Shown here one piece after another: positions 30 to 55,186 of a stretch of 64,000 bases of DNA. The DNA comes from Apostichopus japonicus (taxonomy: Eukaryota). Location: NCBI RefSeq assembly GCF_037975245.1, contig NC_092564.1:11359891-11423890 (forward strand), read 5' to 3'. Position numbers and translations under genes: made by a program. Numbering within the stretch: position 1 is the stretch's first letter; each line of letters opens with the position of its first letter. The notes beneath the pieces are model-generated. The model did no database searches. It was not told the DNA's origin and saw only the letters and a list, made by a program, of their open reading frames with translations.

Positions 30-1200
30 GGCCAGGTCGATAACGCGGAAACGCGGAAACCGCGGAAATCGATAAACCGGGTTCGGTAATAGAGATACCG
101 GGTTCGATATCAACGGTTTCCGCGGTTTCCGCGTTATCGACCTTGCTATATAGCAAGGTCGAAAACGCGGAAACCGCGGAAACGAGAGGAATTTGTCAAG
201 GGAGGGTGACGAAGTCTTTTGGGCGCATTTCAGCCTATATTCGCCAAAAAGGGGTGCGGGTTTAAAGCTATTTCAGTAAATGTAGGTCGAAAACGCGGAA
301 ATCGTACTTTTACAATGGACGAGTTAGATTATTTTGTCAAGGGAGGATAAAGACGTTTTTTGAGCGCATTTCAGCCAATATGCGCCAGGAGGGGTGGGAA
401 AGGGCTAAGGTTTTTTTTTATACTAAATGCAGGTCGCAAACGCGGAAATGTTTTTGTACACAATGAATGGCGAAACTAGAGGATTTGTCAAGGCGGAGGG
501 TGAAGAGTTTTCGGCGCATTTCAGTCAATATGCGCCAGGAAGGTGATGGAGTTGTAGGCTTTTCCCCTAAATGCAGGTCGAAAACGCGGAAATGTTTTTA
601 ACAAAGGCGGAACTAGAGGAGTTTGCCAAGGGAGGGAAATGAAGTGTTTTTGGCCGGCGCATTTCAGCCAATATGCGCCAGCAAAGGTGTGCGAGGTGGT
701 TTGAGGCTTTTACACTAAATACAGGTCGAAAACGCGGAAATGTTTTTAACAAAGGCGGAACTAGGGGAGTTTGTCAAGGGAGGGTGAAAAAGTGTTTTGG
801 CGCATTTCAGCTGTAATGCGCCAAGAAGGGGTGGGGTAAAATAATTTATTTTACTAAAAGCCGGTCGAAAACGCGGAATTGTTTTTTACAATGGTGAAAC
901 AAGAGAAACTAGGCACGGTGAAGATGTTTTCTGAGCGTATTTCAGCCAATATGCGCCACGAGGGGGTGCGGGAAGGGTGTAGCCTTTTTTAATACTAAAT
1001 GCAGGTCGAAAACGCGGAAATGTTTTTAACAAAGGCTGAACTAGAGGAGTTCGCTAAGGGAGGGAAATGAAGTGTTTTGGCCGGCGCATGTCAGCCAATA
1101 TGCGCCAGCAAGGTCTGGGGAGGTGGGTTGAGGCTGTTACACTAAATACAGGTTGAAAACGCGGAAATGTTTTTTTAACAATGGTGAAACTAGAGGATTT
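30..1200 (+). repeat. Foldback left arm: palindromic ~170-bp terminus plus about seven ~144-bp CpG-rich tandem subrepeats
   Basis: Unit starts 'aggtcgaaaacgcggaaat' fall at about 160, 287, 431, 575, 722, 862, 1004 and 1150. The terminus 38-150 is itself a palindrome, with 'gtcgataacgcggaaacgcggaaaccg' facing 'cggtttccgcggtttccgcgttatcgac', followed by 'ccttgctatatagcaagg'. Confidence 0.8.
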
Positions 1201-1483
1201 TGTGGTGGTTATTCCAGACATTAATCAAAGAAAATGTGACGTAGGCTATTAATATCAGAGCTTAAGTATTTCGCCATGGCATAAGTCTCAGCATACCGGT
1301 TCTTAAGCTAATAATTGAGTAGAGCTTGATATAAGTACTTCATACCCGACGAATCTAAGTGTTTTCTACATAACGATATCTCAAATAACAAACTTAAAAG
1401 AAAGAGAGTAAACACAAACGGAGGTACAATGGAAATTTTTTGATATAAACACGTATAGAACTAAAACATTAAGCTTTTTCAAG

Positions 1484-2345
1484 GTCCCGTAACACTCATT
1501 AAAGAAGTAATGATTTAGCGGTAATTTAAATCGGTCAAGCACTCTTTGGACTGGGCAAGACGCATTATGGTACTCTTCTACAATGTCATTAGAGTTCATG
1601 TTACCCAATGGTTTGGTGATCCAAGGTGTGCTGCATGGATTAGGGCCCAGAGCGTGTTCGTGGTCCCGTTACACTCATTAAAGAAGTAATGATTTAGTGG
1701 TCATTTTAATTGGTCAAGCACTCTTTGGACCGGGCAAGACGCATTACGGTACCCTTCTACAATGTCTGTAGAGTTCATATGACTCATTGGTTGGGTGGTC
1801 CAAGGCGTGCTGGTCTTGATTAGGACCCAAATGTTTTTCATTCGTTGTCCCGTTACACTAATTTAATAAGTGATTATTTAGTTGTCATTTTAATTGGTCA
1901 AGCACTCTTTGGACCGGGCAAGACGCATTATTCTACCCTTCTATAATGTCTTTAGAGTTCATATGACCCATTGGTTAGGTGGTCCAAGCCGTGCTGGTTT
2001 TGATTAGGGCCTTAAGGTGTTTTTCAGGTCCCGTTACTTTCATTTAAGAAGTGATTATATAGGGGTCATTTTAATTGGTCAAGCACTCTTTGGACCGGGC
2101 AAGACGCATTATGATATCCTTCTTCATTGTCTTAAGAATTCATATGACCCATTGGTTAGGTGGTCCAAGGCGTGCTAGTCTTGATTAGGGCCTAAAGTGA
2201 TTTTTCGTCAGGTCCCGTTTCCGTTACATTAATTTAAGAACCGATGATGTAGTGGTCATTTTAGTTGGTCAAGAACTCTTTGGACCGGGCAAGATGCACT
2301 ATGGTACCCATTTACATTGTCATTAGAGTTCAAATGACCCAGATA
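1484..2345 (+). repeat. Internal tandem repeat in the Foldback core, 5 units of ~181 bp
   Basis: Units beginning 'gtcccgttacactcattaaagaagtaatgatttag...ggtcaagcactctttggaccgggcaagacgcatta...' start at about 1484, 1663, 1847, 2028 and 2210. Confidence 0.8.
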
Positions 2346-3073
2346 AACCTCTTTTCCACGACCAAATGTTGAACATCTTGTAAGAATGCATTCGTCTTGT
2401 CATAAGTGTTACGTCGGTACCATTGTCGAATAAGTAACTGAATAGGTAGCAGTTACTCATTCGCGAACGTCGAACGAGGAATTAGTATCTAACTTCACAC
2501 CGGTATTCCAATACTGGGGAAGATGGCAGGGTTGCCAGTTTTATTGTAACGCAATCGGTCAAATAATTGTAAATGTGACTGTCTTACTTCTAATAGTTCG
2601 CAACTTCAAGTTCATACACTTCCTCCGAATCGTCCCCCAAAACATAGGTTCTATGTATTCTTTTCATAAACGATCAAAAGCTCCTTTGCCGTCCCCTAGC
2701 TGTGAAAATTCTCTAGTTCCGCCATTGTACATACGCACCTTTATATATACCGACGGGGTGGCCCCAGAGGGGGAGGGAGAAGCGGGGTAACAGTCCCCTT
2801 CCCCTCGTCGGGGAGGTCTAGCCCCCTGGTAGGGGAAATTATGATTTCGTCAGGGAGCAATGAAGAAAAAAATATATTATTGTGTATTTCTTATCATCAT
2901 AATGATCATTCTATGATAAAGATAAATGTAGGAAAATCAGTCCCCGACAGGTGTCAGCCGCACCGACATACGGGCTTCAAACTTCTCTCATATACCAAAA
3001 AAGACACCACAAATTACCGCGCGCTTCGGCAATATTAGATTTATATATACATAGATATGTATCTGTATGTGCA

Positions 3074-3081
<8 letters not shown>

Positions 3082-3104
<23 letters not shown>
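3082..3104. repeat. (TA)n microsatellite abutting hairpin element copy 1
   Basis: Direct read of the sequence. A second AT-rich run lies at 3283-3350. Confidence 0.9.
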
Positions 3105-3282
3105 GAGTAGGTTGGCGTCTATCTTGGCGCAGAGTGCTCTATGTCCATTGGACAGAGCGGAATATATGTTGATACTAGATGAGACTAGTGGAACACTAGT
3201 AGATTGTCTGAAGATCGCTATAAAGCGTGAAACTCCGAGTTACAACTACTAGTGTTCCACTAGTCTCATCTAGTATCAACAT
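3105..3282. mobile_element. Small hairpin/palindromic element, copy 1 (truncated left arm), nested in the Foldback core and embedded in (TA)n
   Basis: The 56-bp head 'agagtaggttggcgtctatcttggcgcagagtgctctatgtccattggacagagcg' precedes palindrome arms 'gatactagatgagactagtggaacactagtag' and 'ctactagtgttccactagtctcatctagtatc'. The same module occurs at 26205-26420. Confidence 0.7.
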
Positions 3283-3309
3283 ATATATACATATATATGT
3301 ATGTGTAAG

Positions 3310-3345
<36 letters not shown>

Positions 3346-3479
3346 TTTTTTTATTAATATTACAACGTGCACACAATTGTTTCCGGGGACCTTAGCTCCT
3401 GTGTCGGAGAAATCCTGGAACCATCCCTGCATACCAATTGGACGTTAACAAACATTACTGAGTTTTCTGCCTGTATTTA

Positions 3480-4564
3480 GTGAAAAAAAGCTTCAAACCC
3501 AAACCCTAATTCTTGGCGCATGTTGGCTGAAATGCGCCCAAAACATTTCTTTACATTTCCTGCATGCATTTAGAGTATTTCCGTCATTGTTAAAAAAAAT
3601 TCGCGTTTTCGACATGCCTTTAGTGAAAAGACCTCAACCTCACCCCTTTCTGGCGCCTATTTGCTAAAATGCGCCCAAAACACCTTTTCACCCTGTCTTA
3701 ACAAAATCATCGAGTTGTGAAAAATGTTGTGAAGAAAAAAAAATTCGCGTTTTCGACATGCCTTTAGTAAAAAGACCTCAACCTCACCCCTTTCTGGCGC
3801 CTATTTGCTAAAATGCGCCCAAAACACCTTTTCACCCTGTCTTAACAAAATCATCGAGTTGTGAAAAATGTTGTGAAAAAAAAAAAAATTCCGCGTTTTC
3901 GACCTACACTAACTGAAAAAAGTCTCATACCCCCACTCCATCCTTGCACATATCGGCAAACACTTTTTTCCGCGTTTTCGACCTGCATTTAGTGATAAAA
4001 GCCTCAACCCCCTCCCCTCACCCCTTCCTGTCGCATTTTGGCTGAAATGCGCAGATCAAAAACATTTCTTTTCCCTCCCTTAGCAAACTCCTCTAGTTCC
4101 GGCTTTTCTTGAAAACATTTCCGCGTTTTCGACCGGCATTTAGTGAAACAAAATCTTCTATCCCCACCCCTCCTGGCGCATACTGGCTGAAATGCGCTCC
4201 AAATTTTTTCACCCTCTCTTGACAAATCATCTAGTTTCGCCATTGTAAAAAAAAAACATTTCCGCGTTTTCGACCTACACTACCCTCCCTTGACAAAATA
4301 ATCTAACTCATCCATTGTAAAGTACGATTTCCGCGTTTTCGACCTACATTTACTAGCTTTAAACCCGCACCCCTTTTTGGCGAATATAGGCTGAAATGCG
4401 CCCAAAAGACTTCGTCACCCTCCCTTGACAAATTCCTCTCGTTTCCGCGTTTTCGACCTTACTATATAGCAAGGTCGATAACGCGGAAACCGCGGAAACC
4501 GTTGATATCGAACCCGGTTTCTCGATTTCCGCGGTTTCCGCGTTTCCGCGTTATAGACCTGGCC
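3480..4564 (-). repeat. Foldback right arm: inverted copy of the left-arm subrepeat array plus terminal palindrome
   Basis: 'cgcgttttcgac' unit starts fall at 3603, 3751, 3893, 3970, 4122, 4263, 4333 and 4447. The terminus 'ccttactatatagcaaggtcgataacgcggaaaccgcggaaaccgttgatatcgaacccgg...' is the reverse complement of 100-200. Confidence 0.8.
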
Positions 4565-4574
4565 CAGTATTAAC
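4565..4574. repeat. Right target-site duplication of the Foldback element ('cagtattaac')
   Basis: Matches 20-29 exactly. The element is bounded by 'ggccagg...cctggcc'. Confidence 0.7.
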
Positions 4575-4732: not shown

Positions 4733-4828
4733 ACCATCTAAGCGGAGCACCACCATGGGTTGGCACGAAGCGTACAAGAAAATTTTGGGATCTTACGGCC
4801 CCTCCGATGGCCGGAAACATCACTTCCC
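4733..4828 (-). repeat. ~95-bp dispersed repeat, copy A (module '...aagtgccatttcc..aaaattttcttgtacgc..cgcgccaac.catggtggcgct.cgcttagatagt')
   Basis: The reverse complement of 4733-4828 aligns with the copies at 10770, 11450, 11926 and 29231. Confidence 0.7.
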
Positions 4829-6001
4829 GGGTCATCTAAGCTGAATCTATACTGTTTCCTTATATGTATTGTGTCTATTTTTTTTTCATTCCAGAGGAGA
4901 AAATTTCTTGAAATAAAAAAAATCTCTGAAATTTTGCGGACGCTGTAGCGTTCACGTGTGTCGTAACGGTATATTATTTTTCACGAATCGTATAGGTAAC
5001 GTTGCTTTCAGCCGGGCATATTTAGCACGATCGGCTTTGAGTAATTTCCGATCCTGGCGGTTCTGAGATAATTCGCATTTTGGTGTGATGAAATGAATTT
5101 CACGCTAGCAATGATACACTTTTACAGGAAAAACTCTGTGGGCCTACAATGGGGGAGATTCTTCAAAAATGCGGGAGTTTTTTGGAAATGCGGGAGATTC
5201 GGACAGGTGGGCGGGTGAGCGCTAGACGACCCGAAAATGCGGGTGACACCCGCCCAAAGCGGGTGACTTGGAAGCACTGAGTATTACTCGTGACTTGTGC
5301 GGTACCAAACACATGTTACATCCGAGGCATTTTTACGACTGGAGGGGGGGTGGGGTGCTCATCTTTTGACATTTTTGGCATTCCTATGCAAACTGTAAAA
5401 GTAGTATGCAGTTTTCCCTGCATACACTGTTTTGTCTTATCTGACACAGTCTTCAATTTTTCACATATATTAGGGGTAAAAAACATCTTTCATTTGGAAT
5501 ACAGAACATTCATTCTTTGATGCTGTACTGAATATAGGTTATATTGTGACTATTTTTAAACGAGATTATTAAAGTCGAGACAAACTCCGAATTTCTTGTT
5601 TTGTCATTTGTTTGGTCTTACGTCACCTTAAGCTTCCAAAGACATAAAAATAATGTAGTAATAATAAAGTATGTCGTGATTAAAATCCCTCAGGCTGGGA
5701 AAAAGAACAATAGGCAGAACCATTTATTCGAACGAGACCCCCCAAAAAGCGAATTATTATAATTAATTAGCGATGTCAGGGCTTTGCTCACACGAAATGT
5801 CATCTTCTGCTTACATACATGGTTTCCTTTACGTTGTTCGCAGTCGATGAATAATAAAAAGAACAAAAAACCAAGCGTTTTCGGTAAGTTGTTAGTAGCT
5901 TTCTTGTAAATTACAAGTGTGCGACAAAGGTTTCCAGAATCGAATACTAGTAGTCCTTCTTTTTTTCTTTTGTGAATACTCCCTCATTTTAATAAAAATT
6001 A

Positions 6002-6003
6002 TT

Positions 6004-6070
<67 letters not shown>
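6002..6070. repeat. (AAT)n microsatellite
   Basis: Direct read. It generates the poly-Ile pseudo-ORF 5917-6180. Confidence 0.95.
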
Positions 6071-7016: not shown

Positions 7017-7091
7017 TATTATTATTATTATTATTATTATCATCATCATTATTATTATTATTATCATCATCATCATTATTATTATTATTAT
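7017..7091. repeat. (ATT)n/(ATC)n microsatellite
   Basis: Direct read. It generates the poly-Tyr/His and poly-Ile pseudo-ORFs. Confidence 0.95.
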
Positions 7092-9083
7092 AGGCATCAA
7101 ACTACCACTACATCTGAAGTAAGATATGAATATGATATGCAGTTACTTTTTGTTAGTTACCAACATCAAAAACAGTCTTCCCAACTCCAAAATCGTCAAG
7201 GACACTCATGATTACGTCATTCTGCTATCATATTTAATTGGTTGAAAGAATCTCTTATATATCACTTACCGCAACTTTGAGGTTTTTCTACTTTTAAAAG
7301 ACATAGTAAATGAGAATGATCCCTTTCTTAAAGACTCAGTAAAAATATGAGAACAACTGACCTCGGAGACACCCGAGACAACTTAACTACCTACGTGACC
7401 AATTTTTGGCTCATTCTTGCTTAGGGTCATTATATTTCAGCGTCACGTGTACTTGTTTCATCACGCAGATACAGAGATATATAGACGAGGAGGGCTGATA
7501 GAAGAATAATTTTTCTAAACAGTAACATAAACTGTCGTCCCCGATATATTCTATTTTAGTCCACTACTAACCATCATAACAGGATATTCTTTATCTTTGT
7601 AATCAATCTCAGTGCCTTTTGATTACAACTATACCTACTAGCGTATCGAGAAAGTCTTTTCTAGGATAAAATACTGACCGAGAAATTGTGTAAGAGCAAC
7701 AGGGCGTAAATAATATACTATACCATAAAGAGATCATTGTGCCACTGTTTAAGTGCAGTGTGCTTATAGACCTATGTGTTACATCAGGTTGATGTGGTTG
7801 TGTATCTACCTATATTGTATCGTTTACTCTAGAATACTTTAATTAAAGGGACACAAGGAGATCAACAAATGCTGCGGAAGGTGGCTAATTCTGGGAGGGA
7901 GGGGGGGGGGGGGATCAAAAGTTCGAATAGCAGTTGGACATGTGATTTTGATTTGAGGGAGCAGAACAGCAAAAAGATACGCCCCGACAAAATGGTACTC
8001 TGCGTATTTTCTGTACGACAAATGCCATGATTCGAATGAGTTAGACTTTCAAAGTTGTACCAAACAATAACAGTTGTTGCTTATAGCGGAGTAGTTGATA
8101 TACTTACGGACCAGCAATGTACTGTACATGCTTTGGTTGTATAATACATTGCCAGGGAGTAAAGGTGAATATATATATTGCGGTTGTTGCTTCATCTTGC
8201 ATGTTCTTTAGCACCCCCCGACCCACCCACCCCACCCGCTCTCCCTATTAATTATATTTCTCTTATGACGTTATTTCATCGATTTCACTCCCCCATCGGT
8301 TTTATTTCTTTGAGAGATGACGTTCCTTTAAATATCAGACTCATTAATTACAGTAGCTGGACTACCACGTCTAGCACACAAAACATTCGGGCATCTATTC
8401 AGAATCTATTCTAAAATTAATGGAAATATGGTTTTATGGTCTCAAATAATTCTTCACATGCCTTATACAAAGTTGTCAATGACAGAAATCTTGAATATTA
8501 TCATCAAGAGAGTGTCCCGTTTTTTCCCCTCATTTCTAAAACAAAGGGTTAATATCAATAATTGAATCCGGACTCATAACTTATTAGCCGACCCCATTGT
8601 TTCAGGCTTAAAGGATCATTCCATGACAACTATATATGCAGGCCCGTCGCACCCGCTACGGTAGGTACGGTATTTACCGTACCACTTTTCAGCTAAAAAC
8701 AAAGAGAGAGGGGGAGAAGAAAATAGGTGAGGGAGTTAGAAAATACAGTTCGAATCAATAAAATGCACGAGTCTTCATGACCAAAGCCGACCCTCTGTAC
8801 CATCATTGTGTCCTATGATGCGATGAGCCCCGGATGAGCCGGCACGAATTATTCAACGAATCTCAAGTTGTAACTGGGGCGATAGGGGCCTACGATTCGA
8901 GTCGCACCGAATTTCCCCAAACCCCCGAATTCCCCCCATTTCCCTAAGAAGGTGTCAAACCCGGAGATGTTTTACTTAGTTGAGCAGTGTAACAGTAAAT
9001 ACCGTCCGGATAATTAGGGCAACGTACAATGTATAGGGCGTGTCCCCGCGCTGCGCTACACCGGCAACTCAACGCAAAGGAAA

Positions 9084-9635
9084 GTGCCAGCCAGATTAGT
9101 TTCTGGTTCGGCCGCGGATATCATGCCTCCAGAATCAGTGGAGGACTACTTCAGGCGAATATACCTGGAGGCAGTTGACACCATTGTCAACTGCATCCGC
9201 GATAGATTTGATCAGGAGGGTTACAAAATCTACTCAAAACTACAGCAGCTGCTTCTCAAAACGTGTAACCAACAACATGTTGACGAAGAACTGTTAAAAT
9301 TCGTATGTGACTTTTACGGCGAGGATCTCCGTAAGGGCGAGCTCAGAGTCCAACTAGAAACCCTTGGGGAAACCATGGAAGCTACGGCCAAACAATCAGA
9401 GTGGACTTTGCCAGAGGTTGTTGACCACATGCGAGGGTTGAGTTTCGGTAATCGTGAGCTCCTCTCACAAGTGTGCACGCTTGTCAAACTAATTTTAGTG
9501 ATGCCTGCGACAAATGCAGTAAGTGAACGCTCATTTAGTGCTATGAGTGTAAAGAGTTACTTAAGGTCTACAATGACCCAGCAGCGACTCAACCACCTTA
9601 TGATCTTACATGTACACAAAGATTATGCGGATTGA
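9084..9635 (+). pseudogene. hAT-superfamily transposase remnant (C-terminal hAT dimerisation region only)
   Basis: The translation ends '...LVMPATNAVSERSFSAMSVKSYLRSTMTQQRLNHLMILHVHKD', the signature hAT C-terminal dimerisation motif. ZMYM1-like, ZBED-like and P52rIPK-like proteins all share the '..SERSFS....K..LRS.M...RL..L..L..' pattern. No upstream ORF encodes the BED/RNase-H-like catalytic part. Confidence 0.7.
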
Positions 9636-10346
9636 TTGAATCTAGTTGATGCAGCCAACGAATTTACCAGTGCCAAAGACCATCGACGCTCGGTGTTTGG
9701 TACTTTCCATTGATTTGAGTTCGCAGTAGAACGCTGCACACTAACCGATAGCCGGTGCTCCTTTTAACAGCGCCCATGCCCAGGAGCCCATGCTCTTCAG
9801 TATAGTAGTCGTTGTGATACCGGGAGCTTATAGGAGCATTAATTCCAGGAAGAAAGAGGGCTAAATTATACGAAAAATGCTCACATTTGCTGACCCTACA
9901 ACTCTAATCCTCAACCCTAACAAAGGATACAGTAGATCATCCTATACAACTGAATTGCTACAGGCAATCGGGTAATATCCTATATTCTGCGCCCCAACTG
10001 CAGAAAGAACAATGCTTGGAATTTGGAAATTGGAAAAAGTACTGCAGTATGGAGAGGATTCCACCCAGGTGTTGGTTGTCACCAACGCCGTAACGAAATA
10101 ATCATTGTTAACGTTTATTGCATAATTTCAAAAGCCTCACAGAGACTAACCGCACTCGGCGAAATCTTTGCTCACCCACAAAACATTTTTGAGGCCCTAA
10201 CCTCAAAGGAAGGTAGACTAATTGAGGAATCATTTTAGATAATCGTAACACTCATAAGAACTAGCAAAATTATCAAATTCGGATAAACTGTAACTATTCA
10301 GGTGCGTATCCAGGGGGGGACGTTGGGGGCGCGCGCCCCCCAGGTA

Positions 10347-10476
10347 AGGAAAAGAGGAGAGAAAAAAAAGAGAAGAAAAAAGGGAAAAGGAGGGGAAAAA
10401 AGAAAAGGAGGAGAAGAAGGAAGGGAAAAGAAAAAGAAAAAAGAGAGAAAAGGGAGAAAAGGGAGAAAAGGAGGGA
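10347..10476 (+). repeat. ~130-nt pure polypurine (GA-rich) / polypyrimidine tract
   Basis: The + strand is almost exclusively A/G: 'aaggaaaagaggagagaaaaaaaagagaagaaaaaagggaaaaggaggggaaaaaagaaaagg...'. It generates mirror-image spurious ORFs on both strands. Confidence 0.9.
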
Positions 10477-10769
10477 GCAGAAGATAGCCAAGACCTCGGG
10501 AAGAGAAAGATCCCTATTATATACACAGGGTAGCCAGTGACAGATCAAGGATTACGGAGGGGGTGTGCGCCTCACCCTACCCCTTACCCCGACAACTCCA
10601 TTTTGACGTTCCGTTTTTCCTCTCTCACTAATGTACTTGAACTCGACCGAGTCGTCGGGGAACATAACGCATTTCGGGAAGGGGGCGACCGCCCCCCGAG
10701 CAAATTTTCTTTATGACATCGCTAGTAATTTCAAAATAGACAATGCTTAGATGCAACTTACAAGGCCTG

Positions 10770-10864
10770 GGAAGTGTCATTTCCAGCGATCTGGGAGGCA
10801 TTTTCGGCCAAAATTTTTCTTGTACGCTTCGCGCCAACTCATGGTGGCGCTTCGCTTAGATAGT
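10770..10864 (+). repeat. ~95-bp dispersed repeat, copy B
   Basis: 'ggaagtgtcatttccagcgatctgggaggcattttcggccaaaatttttcttgtacgcttcgcgccaactcatggtggcgcttcgcttagatagt'. It is followed at 10893 by a solo MITE terminus 'cctacgcctatg'. Confidence 0.7.
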
Positions 10865-11449
10865 TTGCCTACAGGCTTCGCCCCCGTCTCCTACGGGACC
10901 TACGCCTATGAGTGAAGTGTTCGGTTTCGATATACCTGATATCGGAAATATCTGCTATTTTTCTGTTCCTTCAACCAAGTTTTGTAAAAGCCATTATAAG
11001 AGGTTGCAATATTTCTACACCAATAAATTAACTGTGTCGGAATTTTCCAAAATTTCCTCACCAACATTCTTCATCATACTTTCCTCTACTCGTTCAATTT
11101 TCACCTGTCTGTTAGGGGTTCAAGGAGGTTTTTCTATATTGGTTGTCTATAGATTGAATTTTGTGCAACATTATGGGTATGTTTTCAAGTGATTTTATTC
11201 ACGAGAAAAGGGAATTTTCAAATTCTCAACAAGTAATGGGCTTAAAACCTTCAAAAGTGGGGCTTTCGGATATTGTGGGCCGTGACGTAGAATAACCTAC
11301 AAAAGCAATGATCCATAGGACATGCAATCAGGTCGAACATGATGTGTGACTGGTGACAATCTTCAAAAAGGTTATGGATGGAAAAAAACTTTTGGGAAAT
11401 ACTTGGTTCTCAGGCAAAAGTGTACATCTAGTTGCTCATTTTCAAGCCC

Positions 11450-11544
11450 GAGAAGTGCCATTTCCGGTGATCTGGGGGGTATCAAAACCAGAAATTTTCT
11501 TGTACGCTCCGCGCCAACCGATGGTGGCGCTCCGCTTAGATAGT
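11450..11544 (+). repeat. ~95-bp dispersed repeat, copy C
   Basis: 'agaagtgccatttccggtgatctggggggtatcaaaaccagaaattttcttgtacgctccgcgccaaccgatggtggcgctccgcttagatagt'. Confidence 0.7.
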
Positions 11545-11925
11545 AATTCGCGCCCCCGGGTTAGAAAATCCTGGATACGCGCCTGCTATTACAGTACAGG
11601 CAGTTCTGAACCTTTCATTTATTTTTACTGGCGTAACGACGGTGCGGCCGTCCCGCCACTAAGTTGGAAAAGACCTCCAGCCCGTCGGAATTTCTACCAT
11701 TCATACCCCTACTATAAGACCCTAGCTAGTAGCTATACCGCCCTGCATACACTTTGTAAGTTCAAAGTGCTATATGCTCTTCCGGTGCAGCTGTGAAGGA
11801 CATGGGCGCGAGAAGGTAGAACATCCATGACTAAAGATGGGATTCTTCAGTTCATGTAGTTATAAATGAAAAAATACTGAGTTCGCAGGAGGAGAGTGTA
11901 CAACATCGTGGCCAAATTTTGCCCC

Positions 11926-12018
11926 GCAAGTGCCATTTCCAGCCATCTGGGCGGTTAGAAGATTCAAAAATTTTCTTGTACGCAGCGCCAACCGATGGTG
12001 GCGCTCCGCTTAGATAGT
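11926..12018 (+). repeat. ~95-bp dispersed repeat, copy D
   Basis: 'gcaagtgccatttccagccatctgggcggttagaagattcaaaaattttcttgtacgcagcgccaaccgatggtggcgctccgcttagatagt'. Confidence 0.7.
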
Positions 12019-13195
12019 AAATCGAACCGGTCAACAAAAATACCGTACCACTTTCAAATACCTTCCGACGGGCCTGTATATATGTACATATTAAACTATA
12101 GTAACTTGAAAACGGAAGTAGCCATATACAAATATTGCCTGCAGACTACTAAGACACAGAAGCGAGTTCAATAAGACAATAGATAATTAACAATGCCGCG
12201 AGAGTTTGAAACAAAGTTTTTATTATGAAGTTAACATATTCCGGGCGTGTGAGTGACAACTTCAAGAATTTGAAATAAAGTCGTCCGATTAATTTGATAT
12301 GTGACTCTCAGAAAATGCTGCGCTTTTAAACTACCGTATATAATGTATAGTGAACTGGACCGTTCTTAATATCTGAACTAAAAAGGACCAGTTCGGAACT
12401 GATGTTGCGAAAACTTAATCAGACGGAAGGAGAAAGCCCTCGTGCAACTGCAGAGATGAACAATGGTTACTGTATGTATAATTCAAACCCGAAAAGTATA
12501 TATTCCATTCGAGGAACAGATAGTATTCCTTAGATAATTACACGTACCAGTTTGTGTATAGCCTGTGTGAAGTGGAGTAAAACCTATACAGTTTTGTTTA
12601 CGCCTTCTCTGAGTACAAATCAACCATATTTATACAGATCGGGTGAACTCTTATTATGTGTACAGTTTTTCAACTTAATGAAAGTGTCAAGGAAAATTTC
12701 AATATCGCTGCATTAGAAGGATGATTTACGGGATTTTGTTTTTATTTAAACCAGTAACATGAGTAACTTTTAATGTTCCTGATTGATATGGGAAGTTTAT
12801 TTCAATGTTGGAACTGCTTGTTTTAATGGAGTAGCGGATTTGGGTTGTTGTTCTTTCCATTATCACTTACATATGCGATCGATAGTTGAGTAATTACGTG
12901 ATGAGGATTTGATAAGTCATTGAGTACTTTCGATAGTGTTGGACATTTTGTCGTCATCGATATTTTTAATTCAAGAGAAAGCTCTTAAGAACAACCTTTG
13001 TGATGCCAATGTAATAAGAGCATTATTTATTTAGCTTGGAAATAAAACGTTTTGCAACTTGAACAATTTTGCGACTTATTTAATGTCAATTTTGTTTTTT
13101 GGTTAATCCATCTCTACATAACACTACGGGGAACTATTTATTCTGCTACCAAACTACGACTGTGAAACAAATCCTAAAGGGATACTTCAAGCATC

Positions 13196-14497: not shown

Positions 14498-17400
14498 AGT
14501 GTGAGCCCAGAGAGGTCATCAGTGGACATGACGAGGTCAAATCAAAAGTAAGAATATCTATGTGCCATATATGAATATGGTGTCATACACGTACCTAAAT
14601 AGTCAACAGTGCCCAAACTACAGGATACGCTATAACCGATTAAACTCAGACGGCGTTCCATAAAATACATTTACAACAGGACTGCAACAACATAGAGACG
14701 GTTACGCACTGATGGAGAACATTATATATGTTAGAAAAGTCACGTAATGGACAATCATTACACTGTCAGTGTCAGCCGTCTGAGCATTCTTTCTCATCGA
14801 GAGATTTCAATTGTCTAACTGAACACACAAGCTCAAATTGTTCAAAAGGAGCTCAAAGTGATCAATAACGATGACCTTTATGTATTTACGACTTTTACAA
14901 ATAACTCTAATTTTCTTATTTCTTGTTCTTTCTTTCTTGCTTTCTTTCTTTGTTTACCCTCCTTTATTTTGTCTTGATGTATGGTCACCTTTAAACACTT
15001 TAAAAATGTATTATGTTTATGGAACATAACATCATGTATATAACATTATATAGTAAACACATGGAAAATAACAAAATATGTCTCAGTATGCGTACGGCGA
15101 TAAATATTGACGCCATTAAGGCTTATTGCGATTAGTTGTCCGTTCGACAGGATATTCAGCAAGAATTATCGCTTATAACCCTAAATTTTAAAGATCTAGA
15201 AAACTATAGATTTCAAGTTAATGTATAGTAAAGTGTATGATATTAATGAGTAATGCATCGTGGTTTCTCTAATCCTTTACCGATGTTCTATTTCTATCAG
15301 CTTTACAGTCATCGATCAAAGATAATTTCTGTTTCCTGTAATTTCATGTTTTATCTACTAATTATAATTATCTTCCACATTGTTTGTGTTTGGCCTTGTG
15401 TTTGGCCTTGTGGATTCTTCACGTCAAGTCTTCAAGTCATCAACGTACTAACAGCATGACATTAATAGTGAATGCCATTTACGTGTACACAAGTCAGCGT
15501 CTGTCGTGTAGCGCACCGTAAGTCACACACAGTTTTGTGAATAAAAGTTATGCTTATTAGGGAGAAACCAAATAATATAATTAAACTGTAAGCAATTAGC
15601 AGAGGTTCGACTTGTTGTACCCCCCCCTCCACACCCTCTCCCCTACCCACCAATACCATCATATCACACACGATGTCTGCTACAGCAATGTTCATGTTCA
15701 ATATGATAAATATCCTGCAGTTAAGAAATAGAAATCATGAATACGTATACAAATCATTTATAACAAAATCCGGTGTTTAGGTAAGTCAACGTGTCAGGGT
15801 AAATCTGTCTCTTCAATAGTCAATTTGTTAATGATACATTACTTTGCTACCTTAACAGTTGCATATCGAGTATGAACAACTACTATGAATCATTATGAAA
15901 AGAATAAATCGTTATGGACTCTTAGTAAGTTATCTTGTACTATTCTATTCGTTATATAATTTATTCAATATTCACTACTAATAAAATGTGTGATATTCTC
16001 TCCAGCATTGATACAGTCTCTCCTCCCCCTCTCCCTCTCCCTCCACCTCTCCAACGCCCTCTTCCTATTATTTTTATTTTGTTATTATGGGGGGGGGGTC
16101 TTTTCTTTCTTCAGTGTCTGCGAAAATATTAGACGCAATCACACGATCGCGATCACACGATTTCGTTTTACAACGAAATATACCTCATTAAACGACAAGC
16201 ACTGCTATCAGGTCCGTAGCTAGGTGATGCTCAGGTGGAGGATAGTGGGAGGGTGGGGGTGGCACAATATAACAATCAATGTATCACCTGTACGCAAAAG
16301 GTTCGCCGTAAGTCTCGAATATATATTGTGTATACATAACCGATGCATGTTGCAGTAGGGATCCCCGCTGCCCCTTCCTAAGTTAACGTCCCTATTATAT
16401 ATATATATACGATATTTCCATGCAATCTCTCACTTGGTTATAGAAGCTAGTTAGGTTTCGTCCTGTGGTCAGTTTTGTCTGCATTGCAGGGATCATACAG
16501 TCGTATGCTGAACAAGAAGTGATAGCCTGTCGTGAAAACAGGGATATATTTAGGTTCGATGCACTTTTCTTCATAACAAAAATTATGGCAGGATCGGATT
16601 TAGCATAATCTATTTATTAAAAAATAATAGAACACGACATATACCAATAAACTATATTTTCCCGAGCCCTTTCGATATTTTCCAGGACCCTCTAATTGAC
16701 CCCGTAACCCCCTAAACAAAAAACAACACGTTGTATTCATGAAGGTGGAAGGTTATTTGAGGTCAACAGTAGTCAACGTGTCTACGATAAGTTCAAAACT
16801 CAGCCTCTGTGAACGGTCTCACATACAATGTTAATTCACCTAAGTGATTTCAAGAACATTGTTTTGCTGCAGGGAAGCTGAGAAATGAAGTCAAAGACTG
16901 AAAACCATGTAAGTTCGGTGAAAAACAAGTGGTATGTTCGTGTCTGTCACTTTGAATGTTCTAATATCAAGTATATGTAGGCTACAGCTGTTATGTCAGA
17001 ATAAGTCATGCGCATGTCAAGACAAATTGGAATTATATTGTTTGAAAATTGAAAAAGATTCGACATTTACGTCATTACTTGAAATGAAAGCTGACTTTTG
17101 TAATGAATTGCATTGTTAATGAGATAACTTATGGTATCAAAAGATATATAAAAATGAAGCCTTCAATCTGATTTAATTACTTCAAGAATACTGGATTTGA
17201 ACATCATTCTTAGCCTTAATATCGCATTAATATTTGCCGTGATACGAGGAAGTTAGACGAAGGTTGGACTAATGAAGATTTTTTTATCCTTCTTTGAGGA
17301 TTGTTTTTTTTTACTACATTCTGTTTTCACGTCACGTTTCAATGGGTTTTCTTGTTACATTGATTGTATAAGACATTTATTTGCTCAAGAGTGTGACATT

Positions 17401-19589: not shown

Positions 19590-20085
19590 GCTACACATCT
19601 ATGGCAAGCCATGCGGGGCAAACACTGCATAATATATCCGCGTATTAATTCGAATATATACGCGTATTAATTCGAATATATGTGTTATAGCCTACATGTG
19701 TAAAGTTTCGCTTTTTGAAGCGATCTCACGAGACCCGCCAAAACATTTATCGTTGGCATATGTACACAGCAAGAGCGGAAATGGTTTTTTTCGTGTAACT
19801 CTAATTAATCCGTGCATATATTGGATTTAATCCCCATATCTATTTTATTTAATACGTATATATATTCGAATTAATACGTGTATATATTCGAATTAATACG
19901 TGTATATATTCGAATTAATACGTGTATATATTCGAATTAATACGCGGATATATTTAAGCCATATGATTGGCTAATAATATATACGCGTATATATTCCAAT
20001 TAATACGCGTATAAATTCCAATTAATACGCGGATATATTATGCAGTGTTTGTCCCACATGGCTTGCCATACACATCAGGCTAGAG
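19590..20085. mobile_element. Small foldback-type MITE: ~100-bp inverted termini containing 23-bp tandem subrepeats (2 copies left, ~7 copies right), ~160-bp unique core
   Basis: Left arm 19590-19690 reads 'tatggcaagccatgcggggcaaacactgcataatatatccgcgtattaattcgaatatatacgcgtattaattcgaatatat'. It is the reverse complement of right arm 19850-20085 '...atatattcgaattaatacgtgtatatattcgaattaatacgcggatatattatgcagtgtttgtcccacatggcttgccata'. A possible 6-bp TSD 'cacatc' flanks both ends. Confidence 0.65.
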
Positions 20086-20544: not shown

Positions 20545-20721
<177 letters not shown>

Positions 20722-22018
20722 GGCAGAAACGTTGCCTAATCTACGAGGACCCTTTTCATTACTTTAATTCATTTTATTTATATAATACACCCGATAGCAT
20801 TATGCCATTTTGATTTTATTCCTCTGACAAGTCTGATATCCCAGGATAATAAAACGTATACTATATAACTATTTCTAGCAAAATGAAGAAACATAACAGA
20901 TTCAAGTAATTCCCTCAAGAATAACTGTGACTCCTTTGGTCATAAATAATCAAACTAAATCAGTTTGGCTGGGAGCAATTGTTATCTCCCAAAATGTTTG
21001 TGCAATTATGGTTACTTCTTCGTTTCTCTTTATTGTCTGTACACGTGACCAAGATTGGACACGAGGTTATAAAATCTTAACCACACTGTCTGTGTTTGGT
21101 GTATATGATGAGTGGCATACCTTCGAGCCATGTGCTGTTACTGTAAATTATATTAAATTATATATTGTTGATATGGAGATCTATTAATGTAATATTTAGT
21201 CTCTAAATCGACATTTGTTAGATTTGCTGAACCTGTTTGACATCATGAATTTAAGCTTGACAAAGGGAAGTCTGAAAAAGACGTAGAAGGTATAATAGGG
21301 GGAGGGGGGGGGGGGGTGGTAGTCAAAGATGGCAGTGTCAGTATAGCGTGTTCGTTACATTTGAATTTAATATCCACGCCCATCTGAAATTTATAAAATT
21401 GATCTTTAATCGTTATTGGTATTGTTATTTTGTGAGGTTTCAGTCGGGTGATTAAAACGATTTATAAATGCCATCCGTCTTCATATCTGCTCAATAAGTC
21501 CAGACTCATCCTTAGTCAGGCATTCGATCATGATGCAGGGACGACGGGGCCTGATGGGGGGGGGGTGGACAGGGGCATTATTCCCCTCCCCTCCCAGTTC
21601 TTTATCATATCTAAAGAAAAACGATAGCAACAATAGTGTTCATCGATTAAATAATAATATAGTATAAAGGCCTAATCATTCAACATTTGAACAAGCCTTA
21701 ATTTGCACAACAAGCATACAGCACCGCACACGACGGTACAGCCGTACTACAAGAAATGCCCAGACCCCATAATGACAACTCTTTAGAAGGGCAGGGGAGA
21801 GAGCAAGAATTAGTGAACTTGGCTCTTAATCTATGTACAGCGTGATAAATTCGCAGGATTAACAGTAAAATAAGGCGTTTAATCCTCCACTGCTTCACAA
21901 CTGAACCCCAACCCAACCATCTGTCCATATCATACACCTATAGTCTGAACGATACAAACAAGGATATTACCATTTTGAAACGTTACAAGTTTGAAGAGTA
22001 AATAATATGTGAGAGAAC

Positions 22019-26135: not shown

Positions 26136-26204
<69 letters not shown>
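26136..26204. repeat. (TA)n microsatellite, left flank of hairpin element copy 2
   Basis: Direct read of the sequence. Confidence 0.95.
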
Positions 26205-26208
<4 letters not shown>

Positions 26209-26418
26209 TAGGTTGGCGTCTATCTTGGCGCAGAGTGCTCTATGTCCATTGGACAGAGCGTAATATATGATGAGACTAGTGGAACACTAGTAGTTGTTAC
26301 TCGGAGTTTCACGCGTTATAGCGATCTTCAGACAACTGTTGTCTGAAGATCGCTATAACGCGTGAAACTCCGAGTAACAACTACTAGTGTTCCACTAGTC
26401 TAATCCAGTAGTATCAAC

Positions 26419-26420
<2 letters not shown>
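26205..26420. mobile_element. Small hairpin/palindromic element, copy 2 (full ~70-bp perfect arms) flanked on both sides by long (TA)n
   Basis: Same 56-bp head, then a perfect palindrome centred at about 26338: '...actagtggaacactagtagttgttactcggagtttcacgcgttatagcgatcttcagacaac|tgttgtctgaagatcgctataacgcgtgaaactccgagtaacaactactagtgttccactagt...'. Confidence 0.75.

Positions 26421-26506
<86 letters not shown>
26421..26506. repeat. (AT)n microsatellite, right flank of hairpin element copy 2
   Basis: Direct read of the sequence. Confidence 0.95.
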
Positions 26507-26512
<6 letters not shown>

Positions 26513-52599: not shown

Positions 52600-54115
52600 A
52601 TGAACGCTGAAAAACAAATCCTTTAAGAAACACGAGGCAACTTCGAGTACTGAATTCCGTGCAAGCTTGCCATATTATGCATGATAGATACAACATGCCT
52701 TCTTTCCAAGATAAGTATCTTAACTTGCTTTTACCGATCGACAGAGGAGGATTCAGTTTGAGCGACATTGAATTAACAAGAGATGCTCTTATAATTAAAT
52801 TTTGTAGTAAGATATTAAGTAATAACATTAATATTATATTACAAAAATTAATGTTGTATTTTTTCAAATATGTATGAAGATATGAGCCTTGGGCGTGGTA
52901 TCTTTCAAATTACTCCTAACCACAAGTCTGTTCATAAGCTAAGCCCGTATTACCGTGAACTCATGTTAGCATGGGATCGGCTAATTCAAGGCCGCTTCTG
53001 GCTACCAGAGACCAGAGAAGACATCCTCAATCAACCTATCTTTAGTAATACCCTGATTGTTGACAATGATAGTCAAACACTTTTTAATCTTCATTAAAGG
53101 TGGTATCGTTTCTGTCAGTGATCTGATGTATGAGATTATACCCACTTCTCTGCCAGCCAAGGCCGTGCATGAGTGCATTGAGCTTGGTAATCCCGATAAC
53201 CCCCTTACCAAGTAATCGATGTTCAGAATTATATCGATGTCATTCTCCACGCCTTCCCCTCTGACTGGTTAGGTGATATATTTTCTTCTGATGCAATTGT
53301 ATCTACGCATTTTACTGTATTCCTACTGTAAAATTTCAAAATGGCAAAAACATTATTGATGCCTCCCCAGTTTCGTGAAGAATAGCTTCACGCCTTTTGC
53401 GTGACAATCTTACATCGCCCAAGGGCGAAGAATACTGGAAGCAGCATTTTCCCAGTCTTGATTTTTCTAATAGATGGAGTAACATATATTGTTCTCCAAA
53501 GTGTTTCTTTGATGCCGATATCGACTTCAAAGTATTACATAATATTCTTTACACTAACGACAAATTGTACAAGTTTGGATTAACCGATTCTCCTTACTGC
53601 ACCTTTTGCAAAACCACGAACGAAAGTACTATTCCTCTTTTTATTGAGTGTTCTGAAGTCGAAAATTTATGGCACTTTTTGGTTAATAAGTTGAGTACTT
53701 TACATCCGGTAGTTAACTAAGATGAATGGAAGGGGTTGTCCCTTCTGGGTCTTGGCCGTAAAAACAATTGTATTGTAGGAATTTTGTGTGACTTCATCTT
53801 CAATATATATAAGTGTACAATTTGGAATTGTAGAATATCTCGCCTTAATAATAACTATCTTTGTAATATTGAAAAAAGTTTTTCACAATGTACTCAAGAA
53901 GAAAATTCGTTTACTTTTTGATGTGTACTACCACCAAAACAAGATCTCACGGTTTTTAATATATTTACACAGAACGATATTGTGCTCTCTAAAAAAGAAT
54001 CGAACAGCTATACTTACCATCTGGATAGGGGTTAATTTGTATAGAGTACGTGTTGACGTAAGCATGGTCTGGTCTTTTAACTTTGCTTTAGACATTGTTG
54101 TCTTTTGTATATAAT
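52600..54115 (+). mobile_element. 5'-truncated, frameshifted non-LTR retrotransposon (LINE; CR1/L2/RTE-like) 3' portion: RT C-terminal region plus zf-RVT-like tail
   Basis: The segments 'RGGFSLSDIELTRDALIIKFCSKIL', 'HKLSPYYRELMLAWDRL...ILNQPIFSNTLI' and 'WKQHFPSLDFSNRWSNIYCSPKCFFDADIDFKVLHNILYTNDKLYKFGLTDSPYCTFCKTTNESTIPLFIECSEVENLWHFLVNKL' match the conserved C-terminal 'ILNQPLF.N' and CCHC-like zf-RVT pattern of LINE ORF2. They sit in three different frames. Confidence 0.7.
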
Positions 54116-54295: not shown

Positions 54296-55186
54296 AAAGA
54301 GGCGCGATGGCTTGGCGCACTGTACGAGCTAATGATCGAGATCCTCTTTGGGATCCGTGGTTCGAACCCCGGTGATGACGTCTTTTGCCGATCTTTTACA
54401 GCTCGTGCCTACACGGGGAGCTGTGAGTATTAGTTAATCCATCTAATATCTCAGTCCATACAGTGGCGCGATGGCTTGGCGCACTGTACGAGCTGATGAT
54501 CGAGACTCTCTTTTGGATCCGTGGTTCGAATCCCGGTGATGACGTCTTTTGCCGATCTTTTACAGCTGGTGCCTACACGGGGAGCTGTAAGTATTAGTTA
54601 ATCCACCTAATATCTCAGTCCATACAGTGGCGCGATGGCTTGGCGCACTGTACGAGCTGATGATCATCTCTCTTTTGCATCCGTGGTTCGAACCCCGGTG
54701 ACGTCTTTTGCCGATCTTTTACAGCTCGTGCCTACACGGGGAGCTGTAAGTATTAGTTAATTCACCTAATATCTCAGTCCATACAGTGGCACGATGGCTT
54801 GGCGCACTGTACGAGCTGATGATCATCTCTCTTTTGCATCCGTGGTTCGAACCCCGGTGACGTCTTTTGCCGATCTTTTACAGCTCGTGCCTACACGGGG
54901 AGCTGTAAGTATTAGTTAATCCACCTAATATCTCAGTCCATACAGTGGCGCGATGGCTTGGCGCACTGTACGAGCTGATGATCATCTCTCTTTTGCATCC
55001 GTGGTTCGAACCCCGGTGACGTCTTTTGCCGATCTTTTACAGCTCGTGCCTACATTGGGAGCTGTAACTTAGTTAATCGGCATAATATCTCAGTCCATAC
55101 AGTGGCGCGATGGCTTGGCGCACTGTCCGAGCTTTTGAGCGAGACTCTCTTTTGCATCGGTGGTTCGAACCCCGGTGACGTCTTTT
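54296..55186 (+). repeat. Tandem array of six ~162-bp tRNA-like (SINE-head-like) units directly 3' of the LINE
   Basis: The unit reads 'acagtggcgcgatggcttggcgcactgtacgagctgatgatc...ccgtggttcgaa(t/c)cccggtga(tg)acgtcttttgccgatcttttacagctcgtgcctacacggggagctgtaagtattagttaatccacctaatatctcagtccat'. It has D-arm-like 'gcgcgatggcttggcgc' and T-loop-like 'ggttcgaatcc'. Unit starts fall at about 54301, 54466, 54626, 54788, 54947 and 55107. Confidence 0.8.

Follow-up and report, generated by a model that had tools for sequence, protein, structure and literature searches.

The window analysed here, a 64-kb stretch of Apostichopus japonicus DNA, carries two copies of a short module that consists of a 56-bp head and a long palindrome (Table 1). 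The head, which starts with AGAGTAGG and ends with AGAGCG, occurs exactly twice in the window, on the + strand and in identical form, and 100 shuffles of the sequence gave zero matches to it. Beside each head the 17-nt arm core ACTAGTGGAACACTAGT is found on both strands (3184/3248 and 26275/26383). The order of parts is the same in both copies (head, AATATAT, long palindrome), and the whole set lies within (TA)n arrays. A first-pass annotation, made from the sequence alone, had described a two-copy module seated in TA microsatellites, and the identical heads, the palindrome after each of them and the TA arrays on both sides agree with that description.

Table 1. Positions of the two module copies, of their parts and flanks, and of associated features in the window
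Feature	Position	Strand	Basis
Foldback-type transposon with copy 1, ends GGCCAGG...CCTGGCC	30..4564		self-comparison, alignment with the orthologous locus L001
Copy 1, left flank: A10 (3073-3082), then (TA)11 (3083-3104)	3073..3104		sequence, TA-run listing
Copy 1, 56-bp head with small hairpin	3104..3159	+	exact match; predicted fold
Copy 1, spacer G+AATATAT from head to palindrome (copy 2: T+AATATAT)	3160..3167	+	alignment
Copy 1, palindrome: left arm truncated (3168-3202), right arm complete (3204-3280)	3168..3280	+	alignment
Copy 1, proximal degenerate TA segment	3281..3316		sequence
Copy 1, distal right array: (AT)12A, A, T10; mirror of the left A10(TA)11	3317..3352		sequence
Empty pure (AT)83 array, for comparison; L001 orthologue ~108 bp, interrupted	20548..20714		TA-run listing, alignment
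Copy 2, left array, pure (TA)35, 70 bp	26136..26205		TA-run listing
Copy 2, 56-bp head, same as copy 1	26205..26260	+	exact match
Copy 2, spacer TAATATAT and palindrome; outer right arm to 26418	26261..26418	+	alignment
Copy 2, right side: (AT)10 (26419-26438), extra T (26439), pure (TA)35 of 70 bp (26440-26509)	26419..26509		sequence

Copy 1 resides in the central domain of a foldback-type transposon, ~100 bp from the inner edge of its right arm. The ends of this element read GGCCAGGTCGATAACGCGG..., its inverted arms (30-~1200 and ~3444-4564) are built of ~141-bp subrepeats, a 184-bp tandem repeat lies mid-element, and a 10-bp direct duplication (CAGTATTAAC) is present around it at 20-29 and 4565-4574. 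The foldback-like character first ascribed to the sequence around copy 1 is thus apparent in its inverted arms.

The orthologous locus (L001), matched via a 433-residue ORF of the window, lies in assembly GCA_002754855.1 on contig MRZV01000063.1. It is collinear with the window and 97-98% identical to it apart from two large gaps, which indicates that the window represents a different A. japonicus assembly or haplotype; it ends at window position 21902, short of copy 2. The 4.5-kb foldback-type element is absent from L001, where the empty site (~4812-4850) reads ...ACCAAACAGTATTAACCCCTCAG... with a single copy of the 10-bp sequence. This empty site, together with the 10-bp duplication, identifies the element as an insertion polymorphism between the two assemblies, and the insertion is recent or segregating. 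Given that the carrier is absent at the orthologous site, copy 1 holds its present position as cargo of the foldback-type transposon. Its nesting had been taken as an argument for mobility: copy 1 does lie within a transposon, but that position is due to movement of the carrier, not of the module.

A hAT element of 3.4 kb occupies 8639-12076; its ends are CAGGCCCGTCG, it has an 8-bp duplication (TATATATG), and it is likewise absent from L001 (~8882-8889). Copies at four other A. japonicus loci (L006, L007, L016 and L017) match it at 98-99.6% identity, and a Logan contig (L003) joins window positions 8737-10301 to 11586-11966, a junction found in identical form in two of the four hAT loci. Window positions 8634-9732 and 12036-12076 share 88-98% nucleotide identity with a locus (L002, CM055966.1) of Holothuria leucospilota, a sea cucumber of another family; this identity is unusually high for a transposon unless horizontal transfer or conservation is involved. 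That both the foldback-type and the hAT element are missing from L001 points to recent transposable element activity in this genome.

Towards the other end of the window there is a 159-bp tandem repeat (54301-55186; 5.5 units, 94% identity), with a tRNA-like B-box (GGTTCGAACCCC) in its unit. It directly follows a LINE 3′ fragment that bears a zf-RVT-like ORF (52611-53717); a LINE fragment used as a query returned a single Logan contig. ORFs between 57002 and 63646 resemble methionyl-tRNA synthetase exons, an assignment based on visual reading of the translations and on a Pfam match. The ORF at 60.9-61.3 kb is the one that matches the Pfam GST C-terminal domain; by eye, the ORF at ~57.0 kb resembles an N-terminal GST-like exon, and candidate catalytic-core motifs of the synthetase are seen at 62.5-63.6 kb.

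For comparison with other A. japonicus DNA we used a sample of ~87 kb, made up of four loci of 20.6 kb each (82.5 kb), reached via the multi-copy hAT protein family, and 4.8 kb of new L001 sequence; two further NCBI matches belonged to another genome (GCA_012263305.1). These ~87 kb contained no further copy of the foldback-type family, and a BLAST comparison of 30-4564 with the rest of the window matched only the module and TA repeats. Towards the orthologue of copy 2, which would be expected a few kb below position 441193 of MRZV01000063.1, ten ATG-started ORFs from 22-36 kb of the window had no counterpart in the protein collection. The comparison of 30-4564 bears on the idea that the module belongs intrinsically to the foldback-type family, as a piece of its central domain, copy 2 being a leftover fragment. 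Such an origin would suit the location of copy 1 in the central domain of a demonstrably mobile element, but nothing else of 30-4564 surrounds copy 2, whose flanks are unique within the window, and we find it improbable.

The module itself numbers two copies in the 64-kb window and zero in the ~87 kb, a sample too small to bound its copy number, and the window may have been flagged because it holds two copies. Exact-pattern scans with a 22-mer of the head and a 20-mer of the arm gave no match in viral, metagenome and prokaryote collections, none of which includes the A. japonicus genome. Conceptual translations of the module had no match in a collection of 5.8 billion proteins; in the literature its 12-mers appeared only in unrelated primers, and our search found no holothurian paper that describes such an element. 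We infer that more copies of the module exist.

Architecture and decay of the module

The palindrome arms of copy 2 (26269-26336 and 26338-26405), for which ~70 bp had been claimed, measure 68 nt, are 99% complementary and have 1 nt between them. In copy 1 the outer arms (3162-3202 and 3246-3286) pair perfectly over 41 nt around a 43-nt unpaired remainder. Folded as single-stranded DNA, copy 2 reaches -91.9 kcal/mol (z = -21.6) and copy 1 reaches -58.4 kcal/mol (z = -12.6), and the module is strongly hairpin-forming, in line with the first-pass view of it as a hairpin-forming element. A small hairpin within the head, GCTCT-AT-GTCCA / TGGAC-AGAGC, is predicted in the folds of both copies.

Aligned from GAGTAGG to GTATCAAC, the two copies are identical at 162 of 166 positions, with four sites that differ. 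In copy 1, 44 bp are missing from the inner left arm, and TTGT microhomology is found at both edges of the deletion. This internal deletion had been recognised in the first reading; copy 2's own loss of 10 bp (GTTGATACTA) from the outer left arm had gone unmentioned. The copies are also separated by a 3-bp indel of the outer right arm, which interrupts copy 2. As each copy has private indels, neither is the parent of the other and both come from a longer ancestor. Our reconstruction of this ancestor is ~220 bp long and comprises the asymmetric 55/56-bp head with its small hairpin, one variable base, AATATAT with (TA)3 and a 157-bp palindrome that shows a single mismatch against its own reverse complement. 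One-arm deletions are typical of long palindromes, and the 44-bp loss from one arm between TTGT repeats is as expected for palindrome instability.

The module itself contains no ORF longer than 46 codons. Its long and very stable hairpin brings to mind an RNA gene, either a microRNA or a source of long-hairpin siRNA, for which the head would act as promoter, and there are indeed sub-threshold matches to several miRNA models on the hairpin. Their scores are, however, far below gathering (the best sub-threshold Rfam match, mir-788, scores 42.5 bits, the gathering score being 90) and they are spread over several unrelated miRNA families, as they would be for any perfect hairpin. One arm has, besides, been lost in copy 1. 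We regard an RNA gene as highly improbable. A described RNA family was rejected, no Rfam match at the gathering threshold being present in the whole window, and so was a tRNA-derived SINE: ARAGORN finds no tRNA in the window, and the head is without an Rfam match even at E <= 1.

The TA arrays and their relation to the module

TA runs of at least six units make up 0.63% of the window, and both copies lie within such arrays; the probability that two independent random placements would fall in TA runs is ~4e-5. Beyond the arrays, the flanks of the two copies bear no resemblance to each other, direct or inverted, and the one marginal match is a 16-nt AT-rich stretch at unequal distances from the two arrays. 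Membership of a larger segmental duplication, which the first-pass annotation had named as the case against an independent mobile element, is excluded by these unrelated flanks. We also excluded an assembly artefact, the palindrome centre being common to both loci and the unique flanks being different. The presence of the same module at two loci with unrelated flanks supports an interspersed repeat.

The module occupies two of the three large TA loci in the window. The third, the (AT)83 array, is a pure run of 167 bp in the window versus ~108 bp with phase breaks in L001 (16841-16948), and this difference between assemblies implies rapid length change of TA arrays in A. japonicus. The module is likewise absent from TA-array loci elsewhere in A. 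japonicus, namely six within 82 kb and two more at the start of L001 (first 4.8 kb). The window contains other repeats as well: 22-bp tandem repeats (AATTAATACGTGTATATATTCG, ~11 units) at 19631-20039 lie 500 bp upstream of (AT)83, and (TAA)27 at 5990-6070 with (TAT)25 at 7017-7091 forms an inverted pair of trinucleotide microsatellites around ~950 bp, an arrangement also present in L001.

Between head and palindrome, the (TA)3 is unexpanded in both copies. The earlier suggestion that the module seeds microsatellite expansion fits neither this observation nor the frequency of module-free TA arrays, and we regard it as unsupported. A related proposal, the second alternative of the first-pass annotation, is that the module drives growth of the flanking arrays by promoting slippage. 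It would account for TA on both sides of both copies and for the matching array lengths, which look like symmetric growth or equalisation about the palindrome, but many loci have long pure TA arrays and no module, the internal (TA)3 did not grow, and the same 220-bp sequence at two loci would be left unexplained; slippage of this kind seems to us very doubtful. Because arrays are common, mostly empty and variable in length, and the (TA)3 is unexpanded, we take it as the simplest order of events that the arrays predate the module, the TA array being more likely the target than the product of the module.

We therefore favour, tentatively, the reading that the two copies are degraded representatives of a single interspersed repeat that is short, non-coding and non-autonomous and that prefers TA arrays. 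The unit would enter pre-existing TA arrays through a target preference for TA/AT dinucleotides or for TA microsatellites, would not create the arrays, and would later decay through one-arm deletions. By inference, a trans-acting transposase would move the unit and TA arrays would have been its target.

The symmetry of the arrays adds a further aspect. In copy 2 the left and the distal right array are both 70 bp long, in copy 1 they measure 22-23 and 25 bp, and in both copies a differently behaving proximal TA segment separates the palindrome from the distal array. By our own estimate, so close a match in array length would arise from insertion at a random step with a probability of ~4% for copy 2 and ~12% for copy 1. 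A 29-bp direct repeat at copy 1 (3042-3070 and 3282-3310; 26/29) brackets GC-A10-(TA)11-module, and neither this repeat nor the equal arrays are predicted by simple random insertion in an array. Both module ends abut TA repeats, so that the true termini are not fixable; the ancestral unit probably also carried a short (AT)n tail.

These features allow us to speculate that TA arrays captured the cassette precisely at their midpoint. A long (TA)n tract (with A10...T10 as an extension in copy 1) would extrude a hairpin or cruciform; this would be opened at the tip, and a hairpin-bearing fragment with an (AT)n tail would be joined in. Such a capture would explain the equality of left and distal right arrays, the discontinuity between proximal and distal segments (the extra T at 26439 and the degenerate stretch at 3281-3316) and the lack of transposon-type termini. 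We consider it a long shot. The array symmetry and the proximal segment nevertheless suggest a short AT tail of the unit's own and entry at the array centre, a lead that comes from two loci. In a separate case, at 16421-16600 of the hAT-bearing locus L016, another TA array is broken by a different short sequence: two copies of AATGAAAATCGCAGTGAGTTGGAAA lie between TA runs, and the reverse-complement form (CCAACTCACTACGATTTTC) comes after a T run; A. japonicus TA arrays may often lie within small inverted-repeat structures.

Dispersal could also proceed from array to array without a transposase. TA arrays break easily, and a broken one could be repaired on another, with transfer of the embedded cassette by ectopic gene conversion or synthesis-dependent strand annealing. 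Several features of the module would be at home in such copying: terminal inverted repeats and recognisable termini are lacking, the unit is composite and has an internal (TA)3, as if two things in one array moved as a block, and TA on both sides of both copies provides homology for repair. The copies are 23 kb apart in the same orientation, none being found in 87 kb elsewhere, and TA array length is unstable between assemblies, as seen for (AT)83. The proposal rests, however, on general knowledge of AT-repeat fragility and on two copies; copy 1 lies in a mobile carrier, and the 23-kb spacing may be accidental. We judge copying by break repair unlikely, though it is the main rival of the reading that we favour.

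Class membership and comparison with known systems

Comparison of the left 40 nt of the unit with its right 40 nt, taken in reverse complement, gave best local scores of only 6 and 5. Since the unit ends do not align, terminal inverted repeats are absent and the Tc1/mariner-type MITE, to which the first-pass annotation had likened the module, fails as a reading on its defining feature. Inverted ends are obtained only if the palindrome is taken alone, and a palindrome-only unit would exclude the head, which stands at the same distance from the palindrome in both copies. A TA target-site duplication would be trivially readable at ends that both abut (TA)n, and there it is indistinguishable from no duplication. 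With regard to the Mutator-like TA-targeting class, (TA)n is present on both sides and terminal inverted repeats are absent. What speaks against the reading that we favour is the lack, in the unit and the sequence searched, of terminal inverted repeats, of a readable target-site duplication and of a candidate autonomous partner.

Helitrons are defined by 5′-TC and 3′-CTRR (PMC4778049), and a non-autonomous rolling-circle element of this type was weighed in view of the asymmetric ends and the hairpins of the module. Read as G...CAACA, the unit sits between A and T and the TA array stays in phase; insertion between A and T without duplication is compatible with the sequence, as it is for any TA-array insertion. 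In the right arm, 7 nt inside the end of the shared palindrome, a hairpin with a 7-bp stem is followed by CTCATCTAG-T; this structure (ACTAGTG-TTC-CACTAGT, then CTCAT and CTAG-T) resembles a Helitron 3′ end. The junctions themselves read (TA)n|GAGTAGG... and ...GTATCAAC(A)|(TA)n, the reverse strand ending ...CCTACTC, and Helitron termini were rejected on this ground: no strand begins with TC at an array junction, and none ends in CTRR, the ends being ...ATCAAC(A) and ...CCTACTC. The TATCAAC that follows the internal CTAG is common to both copies and mirrored in the left arm, which makes it palindrome and not host flank, and the CTAG-TATCAAC stretch is interrupted by the 3-bp indel in copy 2. 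A Helitron-type origin is accordingly improbable. We conclude that the module is a real dispersed repeat that falls in the familiar class of unclassified short repeats; as things stand, it is one more of these in a repeat-rich invertebrate genome.

Set beside non-autonomous Helitrons, the module shares asymmetric ends, hairpins, an AT-rich or A|T context and no visible duplication, but it differs in the missing TC and CTRR at its junctions and in a hairpin that exceeds the customary 3′ palindrome ~10x in length. Foldback elements and palindromic MITEs are similar to it in having a long near-perfect inverted repeat with almost no loop that is prone to internal deletions, and differ in that the module has a 56-bp unique head outside the inverted repeat. 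Its arms are also without tandem subrepeats, unlike those of the foldback-type element at 30-4564.

Human PATRRs (chromosomes 11, 17 and 22) are AT-rich palindromes that extrude hairpins or cruciforms and break at the centre (PMC4940405). The module resembles them in its AT-rich palindromic DNA, and its equal arrays look as if the array had been opened at the centre; PATRRs, on the other hand, are translocation sites and not carriers of a dispersed cassette, and the likeness is drawn from two loci. The equal arrays hint that breakage at the tips of TA hairpins may decide the landing site, and capture at the array centre, if true, would amount to structure-directed, transposase-independent dispersal of DNA in an animal genome.

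For the TA-array-targeting repeat that we favour, the closest parallels are Micron of rice, MuTAnT of Medicago, TAFT of maize and SaTar of guayule and rice, plant elements that target TA microsatellites, most of which are Mutator-like and possess terminal inverted repeats along with 9-10-bp duplications (PMC4486113, PMC5907723). A family confirmed genome-wide in A. japonicus would explain possible shared flanks of TA microsatellite markers in this aquaculture species. It would also show an association between a repeat and TA microsatellites in an animal, a habit documented mainly for plant Mutator-like elements. The module departs from the plant elements in its lack of terminal inverted repeats, its asymmetric layout of a head and a 157-bp palindrome and its echinoderm host; in common with them, it is short and non-coding, is bordered on both sides by (TA)n of variable length, and has any target-site duplication hidden by the repeat.
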